Of a stretch of DNA of 33,560 bases, positions 4,027 through 22,187 are shown one piece after another. Position 1 is the first letter of the stretch, and the number at the start of each line of letters is the position of its first letter. The stretch covers positions 1 to 33,560 of the forward strand of contig JBBQAJ010000006.1 of assembly GCA_038316195.1 (NCBI GenBank). Direction: 5' to 3'. Under the pieces are notes generated by a model. It searched no databases. It saw only the letters and a list, made by a program, of their open reading frames with translations, and was not told the origin of the DNA. Source of the stretch: Candidatus Saccharimonadales bacterium. GTDB taxonomy: Bacteria > Patescibacteriota > Saccharimonadia > Saccharimonadales > JBBQAJ01. Position numbers and translations under genes: made by a program.

Positions 4027-4034
4027 TATAAACT

Positions 4035-4062
4035 TTGACTGTATTGACAATGGTGGTATAAT
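4035..4062 (+). promoter_or_regulatory. Sigma70-type promoter with extended -10 for the aro leader
   Basis: TTGACT 4035-4040, 16-nt spacer, TGgTATAAT 4054-4062; leader ATG 7 nt downstream. Confidence 0.75.
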
Positions 4063-4069
4063 AATTCTT

Positions 4070-4132
4070 ATGTCAACAACTACGCAAAATTGCGCATATT
4101 GGTTTGCTAGCTTTAAAAAGGCGATTGTATAA
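4070..4132 (+). CDS. Putative attenuator leader peptide MSTTTQNCAYWFASFKKAIV (Tyr-Trp-Phe sensing)
   Basis: 20-codon ORF starting at the predicted TSS; tandem TAT-TGG-TTT codons at 4097-4105; overlaps the antiterminator arm GGCGATT 4120-4126. Confidence 0.8.
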   Translation: MSTTTQNCAYWFASFKKAIV

Positions 4133-4156
4133 GTTTAGCATTTAGCAAAACGAAAT

Positions 4157-4181
4157 AAATCGCCAAACAGGCGATTTTTTT
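4157..4181 (+). terminator. Attenuator intrinsic terminator upstream of the DAHP synthase gene
   Basis: AAATCGCC-aaaca-GGCGATTT followed by TTTT; the 5' arm AATCGCC can alternatively pair with 4120-4126. Confidence 0.85.
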
Positions 4182-4197
4182 AATTCAGGAATAATAT

Positions 4198-5463
4198 ATG
4201 TCGATTGAACAATGCATACCATCATCACCAATTTTACAAGAATCATTACGCATAAAAGATGTTCTGTTACCAGCACGCAAAAGAATTGAAGCTGTAAATA
4301 CAATCAATGAAGATCGTGTTCTAAAGAGCATCCGGATTCAATTAGGATACGATTCAGATTTTGCCGATTTGTCTGGACTGATTGATGAAAGAGTTGAAAA
4401 GGTTCCAATGATTACACCTAGAATGGTTGCTGGAGTTCTTCCATTATCAGCTGAGAGTGCAAGAACAACTTTAGAAGCACGAAAAACACTTGCAGACATT
4501 CATAAACATCGTAATTTTAGGTTAGCTGTAGGAATTGGTGAATGTTCTGTTCGTGATCCAGAGATGACGATAGAATATGCAAAAAAAGTTGCAATCTGGC
4601 AAAAACAATTTCCAAATCTTTTTTTGATGCAACGAACATTTTTTGAAAAACCACGCACTCCTAGAAAACTTGGTGATGAAGCACCCTGGAAAGGTTTTAT
4701 GTATGACCCACTTTTAGATGGGTCAAATGACATTAATCTTGGTGTAATTGCAGCAAGAATTATATTATGTACTATTACAAAAATGGGTGTTCCTGCTTTA
4801 AAGGAACAGTTAAATGCACTTACTCCACAGTTTTTAGATGGATTAATTACGCAAGACAATATAGGTGCTAGGAATGTAGGAGACCAGAAATCTATGGAGT
4901 ATGCTTCAGGCACATCAGCGATCGTAGGAGCAAAGAATAATCTTGATGGCGATATTGAGGCAGCAATGCAGGCAGTTGCTTCTGCTCATGGAGAACACGC
5001 TTTTTTGGGAATCGATAATTACGGTAATTTATGTCTAGTGAAAACATTGGGCAATGATACAGCTCATATAATTTTACGTGGAGGCAGCAATGGCCCTAAC
5101 TACGGTAAAGATCACATTCAAGAAGCTCGGGTTTTGGCAGACAAGTATGGTGTCAACTTATCTATAGATATTGATGCTAGCCATGGAAATAGTAACAAAA
5201 TAGCAAAAAATCAAATACAAGTTGCAGAGGACGTTTCAGGGCAAATAGAAGAAGGTGAATTTTCAATAACAGGATTTCAAATGGAAACAAGTTTAGTTGA
5301 AGGATCACAGCCCTTTAAGCTTGGTGAGGCAAAAAACTTAATCTATGGACAAAGTATCACGGATGAAACTCTTGGGATTGCTGATACAGAATATTGTTTG
5401 ACGACACTAAATGAATCAACTGCAAAACGTAGTAAACTAACAATCTCAGATTGGGCAACCTAA
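4198..5463 (+). CDS. 3-deoxy-7-phosphoheptulonate (DAHP) synthase, class I-alpha (AroG/F/H-like), divergent
   Basis: IGECS, FEKPRT, IGAR, GAKN, HIILRGG, DASHGNS, MET, YGQSITD; Cys/His/Glu/Asp metal ligands all present. Confidence 0.9.
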   Translation: MSIEQCIPSSPILQESLRIKDVLLPARKRIEAVNTINEDRVLKSIRIQLGYDSDFADLSGLIDERVEKVPMITPRMVAGVLPLSAESARTTLEARKTLADIHKHRNFRLAVGIGECSVRDPEMTIEYAKKVAIWQKQFPNLFLMQRTFFEKPRTPRKLGDEAPWKGFMYDPLLDGSNDINLGVIAARIILCTITKMGVPALKEQLNALTPQFLDGLITQDNIGARNVGDQKSMEYASGTSAIVGAKNNLDGDIEAAMQAVASAHGEHAFLGIDNYGNLCLVKTLGNDTAHIILRGGSNGPNYGKDHIQEARVLADKYGVNLSIDIDASHGNSNKIAKNQIQVAEDVSGQIEEGEFSITGFQMETSLVEGSQPFKLGEAKNLIYGQSITDETLGIADTEYCLTTLNESTAKRSKLTISDWAT

Positions 5464-6653
5464 TGACAGAGTTAGTTGTTGGTATTCAAGGTGAAAGTGG
5501 TAGTTTTCATGAAGCTGCTGGAAATGAATTCTACACAGATAATGCTGATAGCATTCGCTATGTGCCATTTGCATCGCATGAACTATTACTTCACAATTTA
5601 TTTAACCCTAATAATGAGATTCATGAAGCCGTTATAGCTGTAGATAACAACACTTCTGGTAGAGTTTTAAGTGCAATTAACGCTTTAAGAGAACACCCAG
5701 AAGTTCGTATTATTGGTTCTATTACTTTGAACATAGATCAGCATCTTCTTTTAGCTCCAGGACATGATGAAGCAGGCCTACAAGCTGTTATCTCACAACA
5801 ACCTGCCCTGGACCAGTGCGAAGCTAATATTAAAAATGCAGGCTACAAGGCTATACCATATTACGATACTGCTGCGGCTGCTCGTAGAGTAAGGGATTCA
5901 CGAGGTAGATATCAAGACTTCACTTCTGTTGCTGCAATTGGCTCACGTGTTGCAGGTGATATATTCGGTCTCTCAGTGGGTTCGAAGTTTAACGATATTG
6001 AATATAACGCAACAAAATTTTGGATTTTATCTGATGTTGAAAAAAGTGGTCACGGTAGTCACACGGCATTAACATTTGAAGTTTCAGACCGAGCAGGTTC
6101 ACTGCATCGTGCGATCGGTATATTATCAATGGATTTCGGGTATAATCTTACGGATATTGACAGTCATTTAGCGTCAAAAACAGATCGTAATAGAGCATTT
6201 TTTGCAGAAATTGAGCATGGAGACTCCGATCAGCTAGAGGCTGTAATATCCAAGATGATGGCTGAAGATTTGAACCCACAAGTACTTGGGCAGTACTCAC
6301 CAAAAGGCAGTCCACTAGCTGTTGAAGGTCTGGATCATCATTTACCAGAAGCCCTCAAACATGATGAATGGAGTGGTCGACACGGGTTAAAAAATCCAAA
6401 TGGATCTGCTGTGCTATATGTCGAGACAGATCATACCAGTGGTTCTTTATTTAAAGTACTAGGGAAGCTTGCATCATGTAATCTTGTTGATTTAGGTCGG
6501 CCCACTGTTCCTATAGACCATCAATTTAATAGGGGATTTTACATAGTTATTGATGCAACTACTCAAAGAAATGTCATACAATCAGCGATCGAATCAATCA
6601 GTCAAATGGAAGGTTTTTCGGCAGAAAAAGTAAGTGTTGGAGAGCTAAAGTAA
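5463..6653 (+). CDS. pheA: Prephenate dehydratase (PheA-like) with two ACT-like domains and no chorismate mutase domain
   Basis: QGESGSFHE, QPALDQC, DTAAAA, NATKF (TRF-like); ACT DRAGSL..NLTDIDS and second DHTSGSL..NLVDL; likely start ATG 5463 (TAATG coupling). Confidence 0.8.
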   Translation: MTELVVGIQGESGSFHEAAGNEFYTDNADSIRYVPFASHELLLHNLFNPNNEIHEAVIAVDNNTSGRVLSAINALREHPEVRIIGSITLNIDQHLLLAPGHDEAGLQAVISQQPALDQCEANIKNAGYKAIPYYDTAAAARRVRDSRGRYQDFTSVAAIGSRVAGDIFGLSVGSKFNDIEYNATKFWILSDVEKSGHGSHTALTFEVSDRAGSLHRAIGILSMDFGYNLTDIDSHLASKTDRNRAFFAEIEHGDSDQLEAVISKMMAEDLNPQVLGQYSPKGSPLAVEGLDHHLPEALKHDEWSGRHGLKNPNGSAVLYVETDHTSGSLFKVLGKLASCNLVDLGRPTVPIDHQFNRGFYIVIDATTQRNVIQSAIESISQMEGFSAEKVSVGELK

Positions 6654-7411
6654 TGAGTAAGCAAGAATCAATCGGTATAGTTGGCGCGTATGGTGATTTA
6701 GGGCGACAAATGGCAGTTCAAGCAACTAGCGCGTATTCTGAAGTTTTTCTTTACGACATCCCAAAAGTATCTCCAGTTTCTTCGCTGCAGGGGATAGATT
6801 CTGAACTATCAGCTGAAACATTAAATAATCGTCCACAGATAGCCAACAACCTAGGTGAATTGGTTGAACTTTCTGACATAGTCCACTGGTGTGCTCCTAT
6901 TTCCGGATTAGAGGATTTAGAAAAAATAGATGAAGACACAACATTAATACTACATGATAGTGTTATGCAAAACAGTATTGAGGCAAGTACTGATTTAAAA
7001 CAATGCATAAACGTTTTAGGCACTATTGCGATTGTTCACTGTTTGGTCAATAATCCAAATACCGTCGTAGTTGCATCTGATAGCCTTGGGGCCAATTTAG
7101 CATGGAATCATTTTATAACATTGGGGTTAAGTCCTATTTATAAAACAGTAAAAGAACACGATACTGCAATGGCTCAGAGTCAGGGCGTTTTTGCACTAAA
7201 CATTTTGAGACATTATGCAGATTTGAAACAACTACAGTCTATTGGATTATTAACGCAATCATCGCTGGAATTTCTTCATGCCATGGAAGCGCGTGTTTCT
7301 AGATGGACGCCTGTAACTTTAAAAGCTATTCTAAGTAATCCAGAATTGAATGCTAGCCCACAAGTTACGCTAGTAGAAATTGATGATTTTATTTCTGAAC
7401 ATTATCACTAA
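6653..7411 (+). CDS. Prephenate/arogenate dehydrogenase (TyrA-like), divergent
   Basis: Rossmann IGIVGAYGDLG; KEHDTAMAQSQG matches the TyrA EHDxxMxxxQ motif; TAATG coupling to pheA. Confidence 0.7.
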   Translation: MSKQESIGIVGAYGDLGRQMAVQATSAYSEVFLYDIPKVSPVSSLQGIDSELSAETLNNRPQIANNLGELVELSDIVHWCAPISGLEDLEKIDEDTTLILHDSVMQNSIEASTDLKQCINVLGTIAIVHCLVNNPNTVVVASDSLGANLAWNHFITLGLSPIYKTVKEHDTAMAQSQGVFALNILRHYADLKQLQSIGLLTQSSLEFLHAMEARVSRWTPVTLKAILSNPELNASPQVTLVEIDDFISEHYH

Positions 7412-7494
7412 CTATACAAATTATTACGTTGAAATATATAATAGATGCATAAAGAAATATGAAGTAGGTTTTCTGAACCTATATCCTTCATAAG

Positions 7495-7524
7495 TTGACA
7501 TAGAAATTGACAATGTGATAGTAT
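7495..7524 (+). promoter_or_regulatory. Sigma70-type promoter with extended -10 for the trp leader
   Basis: TTGACA 7495-7500, 18-nt spacer, TGaTAGTAT 7516-7524; leader ATG 7 nt downstream. Confidence 0.7.
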
Positions 7525-7531
7525 TTTAATT

Positions 7532-7621
7532 ATGTCTAAAATATATGGCAATACAATAAACCGATCGATTAGCACGCAAACGACTTGGCAAAACTCTCAT
7601 AACGTACGGGAGTCAATTTAG
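7532..7621 (+). CDS. Putative trp attenuator leader peptide MSKIYGNTINRSISTQTTWQNSHNVRESI
   Basis: 29-codon ORF starting at the predicted TSS; single TGG at 7586-7588; overlaps the antiterminator arm ACGGGAGT 7606-7613. Confidence 0.72.
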   Translation: MSKIYGNTINRSISTQTTWQNSHNVRESI

Positions 7622-7649
7622 TATAATTTAAAATTAAATATCTAAAAGC

Positions 7650-7674
7650 AATACTCCCGTCAGGGAGATTTTTT
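7650..7674 (+). terminator. Attenuator intrinsic terminator upstream of ORF-trpB-trpA
   Basis: AAT(A)CTCCC-gtca-GGGAGATT followed by TTTT; ACTCCCGT 7653-7660 is the perfect complement of 7606-7613. Confidence 0.8.
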
Positions 7675-7693
7675 AATTTAAGGAGATAAAAAT

Positions 7694-7921
7694 ATGAACG
7701 AAGCAATCAACACATTAGATTATTTCGATAAGTCAACAGACAAATCACAGCAATTAAATGTTGCTACAAAGATTGGAAATATGATTATTCAGAAAACTAA
7801 AATAGAAGAAGCATCATTACTAAATAATGATTATTTCAATGGACGACTACAAGCATCGTTAGCTGAAGAAGATCGTTTTGTGGAATTATTTGGGTACTAT
7901 CCGGGTGGGCTGGGATTATGA
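7694..7921 (+). CDS. Small hypothetical protein (75 aa), first gene of the trpBA operon
   Basis: AAGGAG at 7681-7686; ATGA overlap with trpB; no recognised motif. Confidence 0.75.
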   Translation: MNEAINTLDYFDKSTDKSQQLNVATKIGNMIIQKTKIEEASLLNNDYFNGRLQASLAEEDRFVELFGYYPGGLGL

Positions 7922-9138
7922 TGTCCAATAATAAAAATCAATATTTCGGTAAATATGGTGGACGATATGTACCAGAAATGCTTCAGCAAACGTTAGAAAA
8001 TTTGGCTCAATCATATGACAAATTAAAAAAAGAAACCAGTTTTCAAAATGAATTGTTTGATTTACAAACTAAATTTAACAATAGACCGACACCATTAGTT
8101 TTTGCAGAGAACCTAACTAATAAATTAGGGGGTGCACAAATCTACCTTAAAAATGAAGGAATGAACCATACAGGGGCACACAAGATTAATCATTGCCTTG
8201 GACAAGCTTTAGTAGCAAAAAGACTACAAAAAACCAGACTAATTGCTGAAACGGGTGCAGGACAACATGGTTTAGCGACGGCAACAGTTGCAGCAAAGAT
8301 GGGATTCGAATGCACTATCTATATGGGTGAAATTGATATGGATAGGCAAAGGCCAAATGTAATTCTTATGGAATTACTTGGTGCAAAAGTTGTACCAGTC
8401 AGTTTTGGTTCTAGAACATTGAAAGACGCTGTAACCTCAGCAATGAAAGATCTTTTACAAAATTCAGATATTACACATTACGTAATTGGTTCGTGTCTTG
8501 GACCGGACCCTTATCCACGCATGAACCGTGATTTTCAATCCATAATTGGCAAAGAAATACACAAACAGCTAAAAATCCTACCGGATTATGTAATTGCGTG
8601 TGTTGGGGGTGGTAGTAATGCTCTAGGAGCTTTTACGGAGTTTTTAAAGTACCCATCAGTAAGTCTGGTTGGCGTTGAAGCGGGAGGTATAAGTTCTAAA
8701 ATCGGTCAACACGCGACTCGTTTTCCTGATGCTAAAATCGGAATATTTGAAGGTTATAAATCGTATTTCCTACAAGACAAAAATGGAAACTCCTCCAAAA
8801 CACATAGTATAGCTGCTGGACTCGATTATATTGGCATTGGACCTGAGCTATCTGAACTCCACGACAGTAAGCGAGTTGAATTTGTACATGCCAACGATGA
8901 TGAAGTTTTGGAAGCAGTAAAAACGCTTGCGATAACCGAAGGTATCATTCCTGCTTTAGAGTCAGCTCATGCAGTCGTTCATGCAATAAAAATCGCAAAA
9001 ATTTTGTCAAAGGATAAGAAAATAGTCGTAAATATATCAGGGCGAGGAGACAAAGATATATTTACGCTCGCTAAACATTTTGATGAGCTTAAGTTTACAA
9101 AATTTTTACGAAAGGAGTTAAATCAATATGACAAATAA
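7918..9138 (+). CDS. trpB: Tryptophan synthase beta chain
   Basis: FGKYGGRYVPE, HTGAHKIN (PLP Lys), AETGAGQHG, CVGGGSNA, EGIIPALESAHA, SGRGDKD. Confidence 0.98.
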   Translation: MMSNNKNQYFGKYGGRYVPEMLQQTLENLAQSYDKLKKETSFQNELFDLQTKFNNRPTPLVFAENLTNKLGGAQIYLKNEGMNHTGAHKINHCLGQALVAKRLQKTRLIAETGAGQHGLATATVAAKMGFECTIYMGEIDMDRQRPNVILMELLGAKVVPVSFGSRTLKDAVTSAMKDLLQNSDITHYVIGSCLGPDPYPRMNRDFQSIIGKEIHKQLKILPDYVIACVGGGSNALGAFTEFLKYPSVSLVGVEAGGISSKIGQHATRFPDAKIGIFEGYKSYFLQDKNGNSSKTHSIAAGLDYIGIGPELSELHDSKRVEFVHANDDEVLEAVKTLAITEGIIPALESAHAVVHAIKIAKILSKDKKIVVNISGRGDKDIFTLAKHFDELKFTKFLRKELNQYDK

Positions 9139-9880
9139 AATAATGACGCATGTAGTGGCTGGATATCCTACGCGTCAATTGTGCGTTGAATTACTTCTAG
9201 GTATGCAGAATTCTGGCGCAACAATGGTTGAAATTCAATTTCCTTTTTCAGATCCAAGCGCTGATGGAGAAATAATAATGAAAGCCAACGAAGTTGCTAT
9301 AGGCAATAATATTACAATTAATAATTGCTTCAAAATGATAGAAGTAGCAAATAAAAACGGGTTAAAAATTCCCGTATACGTTATGAGCTACGCGAATAAA
9401 CTATTTCATTTTGGATATAAAAGGTTCTGTCACAACGCAAATAAATATAATGTCTCAGGCATACTTGTTCCAGATTTGCCATTTGATACTTCAGATTATA
9501 TAGACTTACAGAAACATACTAACAGTTACGGGATAGAACTCGTTCCTGTACTATCACCTGGAATTCAAATTGAACGAGTAAACAATTACGAGCTACATAA
9601 GAAAAAGCTTGTCTATATTTCAAGTACTAAAGGAATTACAGGTAATGATCTACATATTCAGCCTGAATTGTTGAGCTTAATCGAAATAGTGAAATCTAAG
9701 TCTAGCTGTAAGATTGCTCTAGGATTTGGGATTCGATCAAACTTACATGTAGAACAAGCTTTAGAGGTAGCTGATATTGCAGTCGTTGGCAGTGAGGTAA
9801 TAAGAAATATTCATAATAATGAAATTGGAGATGCAATTAAGTTAGTCTCTAAACTTGTTTACGGGTCTAAAGACTCCTAA
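9128..9880 (+). CDS. trpA: Tryptophan synthase alpha chain
   Basis: EIQFPFSDPSADG, VPDLP, GITG, GFGI, VVGS; overlaps the trpB end. Confidence 0.95.
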   Translation: MTNKIMTHVVAGYPTRQLCVELLLGMQNSGATMVEIQFPFSDPSADGEIIMKANEVAIGNNITINNCFKMIEVANKNGLKIPVYVMSYANKLFHFGYKRFCHNANKYNVSGILVPDLPFDTSDYIDLQKHTNSYGIELVPVLSPGIQIERVNNYELHKKKLVYISSTKGITGNDLHIQPELLSLIEIVKSKSSCKIALGFGIRSNLHVEQALEVADIAVVGSEVIRNIHNNEIGDAIKLVSKLVYGSKDS

Positions 9881-9914
9881 ATACGGGCGTTTTCTACTAT
9901 ACTAATGAATAACA

Positions 9915-10946
9915 ATGACTAAACAAGTAATCTTGACAGGACTCAGAGCAAATAATGATCTTCACTTGGGAAATTATTTAGGTGCTCTTTTACCAATTGT
10001 AGACTTGGCAAACTCTCAAGCAGGTAAATATCAAATTAATTTATTTGTCCCAGATTTGCACAGTTTCACAACTCCAATAGATCATACAAAGCTATATAGA
10101 CAAATTATTGTTAGTTTAAAGTTTTTTGTTGCAGCTGGGTTAGATATTAATAACAAAGATTTATTTTTATATAGACAAAGCTTTATTCCAGCCCATAGTG
10201 AACTTGCTTGGATATTAAATTGTTTTACAGGCTTTGGTGAACTTACTCGCATGACAGAATTCAAAGATAAATCAGCACGCATTGGGAAAGATCACATAGG
10301 AGTCGGTCAATTTGACTATCCACCACTAATGGCAGCCGATATATTACTGTACGACGCTTTATACGTCCCAGTAGGGGATGACCAACGTCAGCACTTAGAA
10401 TTTACAAGAACTATTGCAGAAAGATTAAATAACAAATTTGGAAAACTATTTACAATTCCAAAATCAACATCCGAACAGCATGTTTTTTTTGGAAATGATC
10501 AAGGTGTTAGGGTTAGGGATTTACAAGAACCTACAAAAAAAATGAGTAAAAGTGATGAAACTGGTAAAGGCGTAATTTTCTTGAGCGACTCTCCTACATT
10601 AGCAAAGAAAAAAATAATGAGCGCAACGACTGACAGTCTTGGAAGAATAGCGTATAACAGAGCTGAACAGCCAGGCTTGACAAATTTAATAGATATGTTG
10701 GCACAAATGACCAATAAAAGCGTAGGTGATATATGCAAAAAATACGTTGGACATGCTCAATATGGACCATTAAAAAGTGAATTAGCCGATGCAATAGCTG
10801 AATTCTTATCTAAATTTCAATCCAAACTAACAAAGGTAGATGAAAAATCACTAATAAGAAAATTACAAGTTAGTGAAGAAGCTATGAATAAACAGGCAAA
10901 TTTAAAACTTATAAAAATTCAACAAGCCGTTGGACTTAGAAAATGA
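9915..10946 (+). CDS. trpS: Tryptophanyl-tRNA synthetase
   Basis: HLGNYLG, YPPLMAADIL, VPVGDDQRQHLE, KMSKS. Confidence 0.97.
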   Translation: MTKQVILTGLRANNDLHLGNYLGALLPIVDLANSQAGKYQINLFVPDLHSFTTPIDHTKLYRQIIVSLKFFVAAGLDINNKDLFLYRQSFIPAHSELAWILNCFTGFGELTRMTEFKDKSARIGKDHIGVGQFDYPPLMAADILLYDALYVPVGDDQRQHLEFTRTIAERLNNKFGKLFTIPKSTSEQHVFFGNDQGVRVRDLQEPTKKMSKSDETGKGVIFLSDSPTLAKKKIMSATTDSLGRIAYNRAEQPGLTNLIDMLAQMTNKSVGDICKKYVGHAQYGPLKSELADAIAEFLSKFQSKLTKVDEKSLIRKLQVSEEAMNKQANLKLIKIQQAVGLRK

Positions 10947-20978: not shown

Positions 20979-22187
20979 TCATACCAAAGCCTTTTGTATG
21001 TGGAATTTATACGCAGTCAATAGCTTGTCTGCTGCTTGACTCCAGCTTAATTCGTCTAATTCCATTCTTGAATTTCTTTGCAATGTATCTCGTAGTACAT
21101 CGTTTTTAACGACTGAGGTAATTTGGTTTGCCATTTCACGAATATCCCAAAAATCTACCTTTAAGCAGTTGGCAATAACTTCAGAAACACCGGACTGTTT
21201 ACTGATAAGAGCTGGTGTACCATATCCAATAGATTCAAGTGGAGTTAGCCCAAACGGTTCTGAAACAGAAGGCATAACGAACAAATCTCCAATAGCAAAC
21301 GCATCTCGCCATTGTTTGCCTCGCATAAAACCTACAAAAAGTACATTTTTACTTATTCCCAGTTCTGCTGCTAATTCAATAAGCTCAGTATTTTGCTCCC
21401 CAGAACCAACAACTAGAAATATTGTTTTAGGTGCACTTTCTATTACTGCCTTAGCAGCTTTAAGTAAGTTAGGAAGTCCTTTTTGAATGGTTAATCTTCC
21501 AACATTTACTACGACCCTATAGCCGTGCTGTTTCATTGTTTCAAGGTAACTATAGCTGTTATCTCCGTCGATAGGTAGAATCTCAGATAAATCAACACTG
21601 TTATGAATTATTTCGATCTTATCAAATGGAATTTTATACTCTCTTATTATGGCTTTTTTGGTGTGATTGCTGACGGCAATTATTTTGTCAGCCAACATCA
21701 TTGCGTTATATTCGATTTCTCTAACTAAATGGTTGCCTTCATTTTCTCGTCCAGCCCTGTCCGACTCAATTGAATGAACATGTAAAATTAAAGGTCTGTT
21801 AGATTTTTCTTTTGCACGAAGAGCAGCTCTAAAAGTTAACCAATCGTGAGCGTGAATCAAATCAAAACTAGTCTCATCTACTATTCTGCCTACGGCCTCT
21901 TCGTATATTGTGCTTTGATCAAACAAATCAACCCACTCTGTTTCGCCAGAAATTTTAGTATATTTAAAACTATCATACGGGATACCAGAGTTAATTACAG
22001 TCTTTACGTCTTGAGGGTGAGCTGTATTTATTTTCATAAAATCTATACCATGTTCAGCTGTATATGGCACGACAAATTCAATATCAACGGTTTTTTTAGA
22101 TAACGCTTTGCATAGCTGGTAACATGCCACACCAAGTCCACCACTGTTATAAGGTGGTAATTCCCATCCCAACATTAATATCTTCAT
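20979..22187 (-). CDS. GT4/GT-B glycosyltransferase (glycogen synthase-like)
   Basis: GWELPPYNSGGLG, HAHDW, GRLTIQKG, PSVSEPFGLTPLE. Confidence 0.92.
   Translation of the reverse strand: MKILMLGWELPPYNSGGLGVACYQLCKALSKKTVDIEFVVPYTAEHGIDFMKINTAHPQDVKTVINSGIPYDSFKYTKISGETEWVDLFDQSTIYEEAVGRIVDETSFDLIHAHDWLTFRAALRAKEKSNRPLILHVHSIESDRAGRENEGNHLVREIEYNAMMLADKIIAVSNHTKKAIIREYKIPFDKIEIIHNSVDLSEILPIDGDNSYSYLETMKQHGYRVVVNVGRLTIQKGLPNLLKAAKAVIESAPKTIFLVVGSGEQNTELIELAAELGISKNVLFVGFMRGKQWRDAFAIGDLFVMPSVSEPFGLTPLESIGYGTPALISKQSGVSEVIANCLKVDFWDIREMANQITSVVKNDVLRDTLQRNSRMELDELSWSQAADKLLTAYKFHIQKALV

Follow-up and report, generated by a model that had tools for sequence, protein, structure and literature searches.

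Does a short reading frame with a single tryptophan codon, placed between a promoter and a terminator ahead of the tryptophan synthase genes trpB and trpA, act as an attenuator in a member of the Patescibacteria? The question is raised by positions 7495-7693 of a 33,560-nt stretch of DNA from a Candidatus Saccharimonadales bacterium (contig JBBQAJ010000006.1 of assembly GCA_038316195.1; the whole stretch is referred to below as the window, and the genome as G000). We conclude that the locus is very probably a classical ribosome-mediated leader-peptide transcription attenuator, which would sense charged tRNA-Trp and control a 75-amino-acid open reading frame (ORF75), trpB, trpA, and, probably, the tryptophan--tRNA ligase gene, trpS.

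The trpBA leader and its alternative helices

Transcription would be initiated at a near-consensus σ70-type promoter, whose extended -10 element is followed, after 7 nt, by the ATG of a 29-codon leader ORF with one Trp codon, W1 (Table 1). Because this ATG lies so close to the -10 element and lacks a Shine-Dalgarno (SD) sequence, the leader transcript is presumably leaderless, with a start at, or 1 nt before, the ATG. The same 7-nt gap was observed in the counterpart leader of a genome of the same genus (G002), in both aromatic leaders described below, and, by our own inspection, in loci L135, L138, L139, L141, L144 and L145; elsewhere the distance is 6, 8 or 9 nt. In L144 (genome G011), TGtTAGTAT, 7 nt and ATG precede a single-Trp leader. 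Throughout the G000 genome, TAnnnT hexamers peak 6-7 nt before candidate starts of long ORFs (for first start candidates, 83 and 49 at gaps 6-7 versus 17-50 at other gaps); the count is crude and the gene starts are uncurated, and it hints that leaderless mRNAs may be common in this genome. The recurring gap and the hexamer peak support a 5'-AUG transcript, though they do not prove it.

Four RNA segments, copies of one 5-6 nt complementary pair (CUCYC/GGGAG), follow W1: ACUCUC (segment 1), GGGAGU (segment 2), ACUCCC (segment 3), and GGGAG followed by U6 (segment 4). Segment 2, ACGGGAGT, is located inside the leader ORF and is the exact reverse complement of segment 3, ACTCCCGT, so the two can form an 8-bp antiterminator, ACGGGAGT/ACUCCCGU (-13.8 kcal/mol), which is mutually exclusive with the 3:4 terminator hairpin. 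When the ORF was shuffled by mononucleotides, 15 of 5000 shuffles still contained a stretch of 8 bp or more perfectly complementary to the terminator arm, and none of 300 shuffles reached the duplex energy; the complementarity is unlikely to be due to chance. Segment 1 pairs with GGGAGT at 7608-7613 (6 bp, -5.6 kcal/mol), a helix absent from the initial annotation of this DNA.

When the whole leader was folded with helix 2:3 forced, an energy of -23.0 kcal/mol was obtained; with 3:4 forced, and 1:2 also forming, it was -21.8 kcal/mol. Masking of residues up to 7599 gave the antiterminator fold (-14.3 kcal/mol), while masking up to 7633, as by a ribosome at the stop codon, gave the terminator alone (-8.9 kcal/mol). 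The calculated energetics would thus allow a switch between the 2:3 and 3:4 states, and, since the two whole-leader states are close in energy, the order of synthesis should decide between them.

A mechanism of the following kind is consistent with these elements. With Trp-tRNA plentiful, the ribosome would reach the leader UAG and cover segment 2; helix 3:4 would form, and transcription would terminate at the U-run. If the leader were left untranslated, the 1:2 hairpin would form, segment 3 would pair with segment 4, and termination would again be expected. With Trp-tRNA scarce, the ribosome would stall with W1 in its A site and cover segment 1, the extent of the cover being taken from published footprint sizes; segment 2 would then pair with segment 3, the terminator would be blocked, and RNA polymerase would enter the operon. 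Without a stalled ribosome, 1:2 would form first and 3:4 after it.

All sequence features that the initial annotation listed at this locus were recovered at the positions given. The promoter and the terminator are both reported by scans for such sites, translation confirms the 29-amino-acid ORF and the position of its one Trp codon, and the 8-bp complement is exact. The element lies upstream of trpBA, as described there; the first gene past the terminator is ORF75, not trpB.

Table 1. Positions of the leader elements, the operon behind them and neighbouring features; the Leu leader lies on another contig of the same genome
Feature	Position	Strand	Basis or remark
-35 hexamer, TTGACA	7495..7500	+	Read directly and by promoter consensus scan; identical in G002
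Extended -10, TG (7516-7517)-a-TAGTAT (7519-7524)	7516..7524	+	18-nt spacer from -35; consensus scan; TGaTAGTAT identical in G002
Leader ORF, 29 codons and TAG	7532..7621	+	Same length and frame in G002; translation MSKIYGNTINRSISTQTTWQNSHNVRESI, then stop
Putative sensor Trp codon W1, sole TGG of leader ORF	7586..7588	+	Translation of ORF
Segment 1, ACTCTC (pairs with segment 2)	7593..7598	+	+7 to +12 from W1; centroid fold and duplex energy, -5.6 kcal/mol
Segment 2, ACGGGAGT, within ORF end (pairs with segment 1 or 3)	7606..7613	+	Sequence and duplex energies
Leader stop UAG	7619-7621	+	Sequence
Segment 3, ACTCCCGT: terminator 5' arm and two loop bases; antiterminator with segment 2	7653..7660	+	2:3 duplex, -13.8 kcal/mol
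Intrinsic terminator, CTCCC (7654-7658)-GTCA-GGGAG (7663-7667), A, T6 (7669-7674)	7654..7674	+	Terminator scan; -8.9 kcal/mol
SD sequence AAGGAG of first downstream ORF	7680..7685	+	Strong SD; T-run-AATTTAAGGAGA near-invariant among homologues
ORF75 (75 aa), first cistron past the putative attenuator	7694..7921	+	Stop overlaps trpB ATG (ATGA)
trpB, tryptophan synthase beta	7918..9138	+	TIGR00263, 533 bits, cut-off 392
trpA, tryptophan synthase alpha	9128..9880	+	TIGR00262, 167.6 bits, cut-off 102
trpS, tryptophan--tRNA ligase	9915..10946	+	TIGR00233, 268.8 bits, cut-off 176.75
Candidate aromatic leader attenuator before DAHP synthase and prephenate dehydratase	4034-4181	+	TATAAT 4057-4062, 7 nt, ORF 4070-4132 (MSTTTQNCAYWFASFKKAIV, then stop)
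DAHP synthase	4198-5463		
Prephenate dehydratase	5451-6653		
252-aa gene	6653-7411		
Leu leader (S-L-L-L-S), MNEAKLLQDISLLLSPSRLCFSLIEAYPA, then stop	G000:C9:1573-1662 (L148)	-	Antiterminator TGAAGCCT/AGGCTTCA; terminator TCAGGCT-TCAA-AGCCTGA and T5

Conservation, covariation and competing explanations

The closest comparison is provided by G002, where a match of 70% identity spans precisely window positions 7495-7693 (query positions 84-282). The promoter layout (TTGACA, 18 nt, TGaTAGTAT, 7 nt, ATG), a 29-codon ORF (MSNLQDDQIIPNLGQQGAWRNSQDTWESI, followed by a stop), the segments, the U-run and the SD sequence are all kept, with trpB further downstream. In a genome of another family (G027) there is no trpB, yet the element is present, directly after a TrpR-family gene (PF01371). 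In a further genome (G026), whose trpB is 59% identical, the retrieved locus shows another long ORF immediately ahead of the gene, which left no leader to assess.

A set of 25 homologous leaders was assembled from an order-wide blastn search, a TrpR-based search of named genomes, and a covariance model. For the second of these, a TrpR-family alignment from four genomes of the order was searched against the named genomes, and the best 80 of 313 loci (L041-L120) were kept; since some named loci may come from the same genomes as those with G handles, the counts of the two collections were not summed. In the blastn search, 46 of 401 genomes were matched (a tally that includes the unpublished G342; two other searches include the unpublished G035, and nothing concluded here depends on either genome), mostly over the T-run and SD sequence only, which is generic; only ca. 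eight of the matches extend over the leader, so this number is not an estimate of prevalence. The T-run followed by AATTTAAGGAG is repeated with little change in dozens of genomes of the order, before unrelated genes, and looks like a lineage-wide preferred terminator-to-SD junction. The covariance model gave strong matches (at least 77 bits) in 12 of 151 genomes of the order, G000 included, and weaker ones in 10. All seven new strong matches inspected carry a leader ORF that contains W, and six of the seven are located directly after a TrpR-like C-terminus.

The 25 leaders span many Saccharimonadales families, and every one has an in-frame TGG, a count to be read with the fact that the set was partly chosen for TGG. 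The W1 codon is aligned in 24 of the 25 rows of a MAFFT alignment (A4); the remaining leader, L066, is misaligned there and also has an in-frame TGG. The distance from W1 to the stop codon is 33 nt in 19 leaders. In 23, segment 2 begins at +16 to +21 relative to W1 and pairs with the 5' arm of the terminator; the two that depart from this are L079, which has a long-range duplex, and L059, whose terminator was mis-picked. Only one and two of the 25 homologues, respectively, have the two other reading frames open across the ORF. A hairpin around the Trp codon (GCCAGCA..TGCTTGGC) was also considered; it could be seen by eye in some relatives and not in others, and was dropped.

Pairing was counted on alignment A4, with a slid partner and 500 shuffles as controls. 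For the terminated state (1:2 with 3:4), 86.2% of the cells are paired, versus 28-73% with the partner slid, and six pairs show changes on both sides, a number that none of the 500 shuffles reached. Taken separately, helix 1:2 has 82% of its cells paired, and the terminator helix 91%, with four of its five pairs changed on both sides. The 2:3 antiterminator is paired in 77.5% of the cells (35-53% when slid), and its covariation score was reached by one of 500 shuffles. These pairing figures are lowered because MAFFT misaligns deviant sequences. Compensatory sets are found in individual leaders: TTGGCGGA / TCCGCCAA / GGCGG in L067, ATGGGAGCC / GGCTCCCAT in L066, GGGGA/TCCCC within CTCCCCAT / ATGGGGAG in L074, and GGAGGA/TCCTCC in L079. 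In L065, where the terminator arms are ACTCCT/AGGAGT, segment 2 (GGGAGT) pairs with the 5' arm by G-U.

The number of Trp codons varies. The leader of the window has a single Trp codon, as do three others (L049, L059 and L060), and eight of the 25 have a tandem WW at W1. A further TGG is present within segment 2 (TGG-GAG) in 20 leaders, at +21 in 18 and at +18 in two; at this codon the leader of the window has CGG, and an Arg codon (CGG or AGG) is also found in three others. Since a stall at the segment-2 TGG would cover segment 2 and favour termination, this codon is best read as a by-product of segment 2, with W1, and any adjacent W, as the probable sensor. One codon at the sensor position is then the commonest state (17 of 25). 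The minimal one-codon sensor proposed in the initial annotation can be retained in this sense, that of a single codon at the sensor position, but it is no peculiarity of the window, even though only four leaders have one Trp codon overall. The Trp-tRNA-dependent attenuation that was proposed along with it is supported by the conserved ORF, the in-frame TGG, its spacing, the pairings with their compensatory changes, and the U-run; loss of the Trp codon or of the complementarity in relatives would have spoken against it, and both are kept in G002 and in many families.

Because the 25-leader set was partly chosen for a W-containing ORF, a separate control was run on the TrpR loci. A short ORF containing W starts between -25 and +28 nt of the stop codon of the TrpR-family gene in 45 of 77 loci. 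No such ORF was found on the opposite strand (0 of 77), and the numbers at two other places were 5 of 75 and 6 of 71; tryptophan makes up 6.8% of residues in the ORFs at the TrpR stop, versus 0-2.1% in the controls. Most of the 25 leaders follow a TrpR-family gene. In these TrpR-linked relatives the leader ATG overlaps the TrpR stop or closely trails it (TAATG, ATGA, or a few nt), which suggests re-initiation instead of a leaderless start.

Several observations weigh against the attenuator reading or limit it. Folded as a whole, the leader has an ordinary minimum free energy (z = -1.02; 30 of 200 shuffles fold equally well). At 5 bp (-8.9 kcal/mol), and separated from the U-run by an A, its terminator stem ranks with the weakest in the leader family, most relatives having 7 bp, and termination may therefore be leaky. 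A single Trp codon is a less steep sensor than tandem codons. For helix 2:3, two of five covariation measures do not rise above the shuffles, namely both-side changes (112 of 500) and further pair types (328 of 500), and independent compensatory events are few because the GGGAG/CUCCC core is highly conserved. The 25 leaders, besides being partly selected for a W-containing ORF, include the near-identical pairs L070/L075 and L046/L048. Finally, in many relatives the same leader precedes genes that have no known link to tryptophan.

Other explanations of the locus can be set against the same data. Were the leader a nascent-peptide sensor, the peptide itself, perhaps with free tryptophan, would arrest the ribosome, as in the case of TnaC, and residues beyond the Trp codon would matter. 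A partial peptide consensus can indeed be drawn across families (..F-G-Q-Q-G-A-W-[RW]-N-S-x-Y-x-[WR]-E-S-I, then stop), and upstream of W1 the third codon positions are the most variable (entropy of 1.35 bits, versus 1.04 and 1.00 at positions 1 and 2), so that part of the conservation there concerns the amino acids themselves. The residues before W mostly differ between the window and G002, however (SISTQTTW versus NLGQQGAW), while the codon, the spacing and the segments are kept. The conservation past W1 coincides with segments 1 and 2 (AAC-UCY and UGG-GAG-UCU) and is thus explained by RNA pairing, more distant Patescibacteria leaders have only W or WW in common, and a ribosome arrested at the stop codon would occupy segment 2, a state in which termination is favoured. 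We consider an arrest peptide very unlikely.

It is just as improbable, in our estimate, that the hairpins are switched by a factor, such as a TrpR-family or TRAP-like protein, or by uncharged tRNA in the manner of a T-box, and not by the ribosome. The TrpR-family gene directly upstream of the leader in most relatives would be in keeping with such antitermination, but the frame stays open and its TGG keeps a fixed spacing, neither of which a mechanism without translation would require. The 98.9%-complete genome of the window has no match to the TrpR family (PF01371) or to TRAP (PF02081). At Rfam gathering thresholds the whole window yields four tRNAs only, with Trp_leader (RF00513) and T-box unmatched, and at E up to 10 the region 7350-7950 yields chance-level matches to small RNAs (sRNAs) and small nucleolar RNAs, with no leader family among them. 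The leader contains no (G/U)AG repeat array; the single match in the window, at 21863-21880, is at chance level. On these grounds the T-box, TRAP and TrpR readings were rejected for this genome.

The short ORF could also encode a small protein or a product acting in trans, or the freed attenuator RNA could serve as an sRNA, as with rnTrpL and peTrpL of Sinorhizobium, control of trpBA in cis being secondary. The leader peptide is partly conserved, and trans roles of leader peptides and attenuator RNAs are described in the available parts of two reports (PMC7298713, PMC6614838). Nothing at the locus points to a trans target, though: the element is always directly upstream of an operon and has the terminator, antiterminator and SD sequence. 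A trans role would, moreover, add to attenuation in cis and not replace it. As the primary function of the locus it has very little probability.

That the locus is a constitutive promoter followed by a chance hairpin, with the ORF and the complementarity devoid of a regulatory role, would fit the unexceptional fold and the weak terminator, but the conservation of all features across families, the TrpR association far above controls, and the parallel Tyr-Trp-Phe and Leu leaders in the same genome bring this reading close to refutation, and we give it the least credence of all.

The downstream operon and further leaders

If the leader is the ribosome-mediated attenuator that we favour, the operon behind it would be induced when charged tRNA-Trp is low. 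The three trp genes were assigned above NCBIfam equivalog cut-offs (Table 1); ORF75 has no match in Pfam or NCBIfam. A terminator scan of 7000-10200 detected nothing terminator-like between trpA and trpS, and trpS is probably in the same transcription unit as ORF75, trpB and trpA; tryptophanyl-tRNA synthetase (TrpRS) genes are also found downstream of Trp leaders in L060, L065 and L067. Neither anthranilate synthase (PF00425) nor anthranilate phosphoribosyltransferase (PF00591) is matched in the genome (888 kb in 24 contigs), and indole-3-glycerol phosphate synthase (IGPS) gave a weak partial match only, away from the locus. Since trpE and trpD are lacking, regulation of trpBA would serve salvage and not full biosynthesis, and trpBA looks like a salvage module.

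The first ORF past the attenuator differs within the genus: ORF75 and its G002 counterpart, ORF157 (L002 1696-2169), are not significantly similar (E = 2.7), even though the SD sequence and the stop/start overlap with trpB are kept in G002. Over its first ca. 15 residues only, ORF157 resembles a family of 276-aa proteins (MSEFEQQRSYVR versus MSEFNQTRNVR, E = 0.078); proteins of this family are found behind other Trp leaders. ORF75 and ORF157 may be decayed remnants of an ancestral first gene.

Upstream in the window are rpoA, rplQ, rplM and rpsI, followed by the genes for 3-deoxy-D-arabino-heptulosonate 7-phosphate (DAHP) synthase, prephenate dehydratase, and a 252-aa protein that has no Pfam, NCBIfam or PDB sequence match. 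The first two of these enzyme genes are preceded by a candidate attenuator of their own, whose leader peptide, MSTTTQNCAYWFASFKKAIV, has adjacent Tyr-Trp-Phe codons (Y-W-F...F). In it, GGCGATT at 4120-4126 complements AATCGCC at 4158-4164, the 5' arm of the putative terminator AATCGCC-AAACA-GGCGATT followed by T7; the G002 counterpart encodes MLRVSFWNYAYFINPRVATSS (L122 1854-1919). In a relative (L141, genome G020), some 170-260 nt into the stretch, a Y-W-F leader, MSLRQLNITGYWFTDTTRGGFFRMFE, and its terminator are followed by a frame that again begins MNFSFTNNRYWFAGILRDG..., and that may be a second aromatic leader in tandem.

A scan of the window's own genome for leaders gave five matches, two of which (C7 and C8) show no obvious fit between codons and pathway. 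Behind the Leu leader of Table 1 is a gene of 389 aa, matched best in NCBIfam by 2-isopropylmalate synthase, at scores below the equivalog cut-offs. Leaders of other composition are found in relatives: a Cys-rich one, MSNMITQKDCCSCKFLECGF, before a PALP and rhodanese enzyme, an Ile/Val-rich one, MSKQIIVNVIILPGNSG, before RidA and threonine dehydratase, and one with KQKK, MSTMFSQLKQKKATVREASSL, before an M20 peptidase. A cassette of GGGAG(G), T-run and AATTTAAGGAG is common to these three leaders (L018 in G155, L025 in G375 and L017 in G156), and several Y/W/F leaders are found among the covariance-model matches. The genome G028 has three equal Trp-leader model matches (43.5 bits) on three contigs (L145, L146, L147), either a repeated element or an assembly duplicate; in L145, TATAAT, 7 nt and ATG precede the leader MNRNAIVLVTFFTPSTLGGLASFIR, which has no Trp codon.

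The genes behind Trp leaders are varied. A set consisting of a 276-aa protein of no assigned function, a luciferase-like 302-aa protein and a 100-aa protein is found at eight loci; the other operons hold a 530-aa protein, also unassigned, paired with a B3_4-like one, DUF3182 with an AstE/AspA-like protein, a PPDK_N protein of ca. 800 aa, NIF3 with TrpRS, an IGPS-PfkB fusion, or trpBA. TrpR-linked W or WW leaders with antiterminator and terminator are also present in records titled Roizmanbacteria, the titles of other metagenome-assembled genomes (MAGs) being uninformative or doubtful (e.g., 'Gammaproteobacteria'), and a terminator/antiterminator is likewise present behind many of the W or WW short ORFs at TrpR stops outside the Saccharibacteria (e.g., L105, L111, L118 and L119).

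It is conceivable, and we propose it tentatively, with rather less than even confidence, that Patescibacteria possess a portable unit, comprising a TrpR-family gene, a Trp leader at the TrpR stop and a terminator/antiterminator, in which a promoter has replaced TrpR in the genus of the window. Such a unit would be a tryptophan-starvation switch set before varied operons and would define an unrecognised regulon for tryptophan acquisition or salvage, with ribosome-coupled attenuation by Trp, aromatic, Leu, Cys and Ile leaders as the main means of amino-acid sensing. Its targets would be the 276-aa/302-aa/100-aa set, the 530-aa and B3_4-like pair, DUF3182 with the AstE/AspA-like protein, the PPDK_N proteins, the IGPS-PfkB fusion, TrpRS and trpBA. 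The Trp leader could be used as a marker of genes that respond to tryptophan starvation, several of which have no known function.

Relation to known systems

The usual picture of Patescibacteria, also known as the candidate phyla radiation (CPR), is one of minimal biosynthesis, and their gene regulation is poorly known. The locus and its relatives indicate that textbook transcription-translation-coupled attenuation operates in these ultra-small bacteria, and this would imply functional coupling of RNA polymerase and ribosome together with working intrinsic terminators. The mechanism is already known; what is new, judging by the literature search, is the lineage. No report of leader-peptide attenuation in Saccharibacteria, Patescibacteria or CPR was found in the literature searched, which included the available part of PMC7427843, most subscription journals and supplements being outside its scope. 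Beyond the textbook case are the lineage, the recurring leaderless or TrpR-coupled design, and the leader's value as a guide to genes without an assigned function.

The E. coli trpL attenuator works by ribosome sensing, as described in the available text of PMC4007540 and PMC7755916. The element of the window resembles it in having a short leader ORF with a Trp codon, mutually exclusive 1:2, 2:3 and 3:4 helices, a 3:4 helix that, together with a U-run, makes up an intrinsic terminator just ahead of the structural genes, and a similar length of ca. 140 nt. It differs in several respects. There is one Trp codon in place of the tandem pair of E. coli; the leader ATG has no SD sequence and is probably leaderless; the four segments copy one 5-6 nt complementary pair; and the genes controlled would be trpBA and trpS, in a patescibacterial genome without trpE and trpD. 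In E. coli the stop codon is located between segments 1 and 2, whereas that of the window comes after segment 2. The leader has no sequence or structure match in Rfam, and is thus trpL-like in its predicted function but outside the RF00513 (Trp_leader) family, which we take to be that of the E. coli attenuator. In Firmicutes, TRAP attenuation and the tRNA-Trp T-box are Trp-responsive terminator/antiterminator switches in trp 5' leaders; unlike these, the window element is accompanied by no TRAP gene, (G/U)AG repeats or T-box match, and the translated ORF is its conserved feature.

A further parallel is offered by Chlamydia trachomatis, whose trpR-IGR-trpBA locus has an annotated TrpL of 59 aa with non-consecutive Trp codons; in the part of the source available, this TrpL is called unvalidated, atypical and a poor attenuator, and attenuation is attributed to YtgR (PMC7755916). 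Both cases involve a reduced, host-dependent genome with trpBA-only salvage, a strategy comparable to that of genital Chlamydia, and the order of trpR, leader and structural genes is that seen in the relatives of the window; among Patescibacteria MAGs, a minority is reported to carry trpA and trpB (available part of PMC8672522). The leaders described here are, in contrast, 22-29 aa long (G000, G002, G027), conserved, and equipped with clear alternative helices, and the genome of the window lacks TrpR.

For the leaderless start, the nearest precedents are Deinococcus deserti, for which 14 leaderless leader peptides were predicted, among them a trpEGD leader with a transcription start site at -1 (PMC4007540, available part), and mycobacteria, with leaderless polycysteine short ORFs (bioRxiv 10.1101/834739, available part). 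As in those bacteria, the leader peptide would be made from a 5'-AUG transcript, and it has codons that fit the amino-acid or tRNA-synthetase gene behind it. The phylum differs, and the starts were mapped there by differential RNA sequencing, whereas here they follow from promoter geometry; the patescibacterial design, for its part, recurs in many families, often after a TrpR-family gene instead of a promoter.

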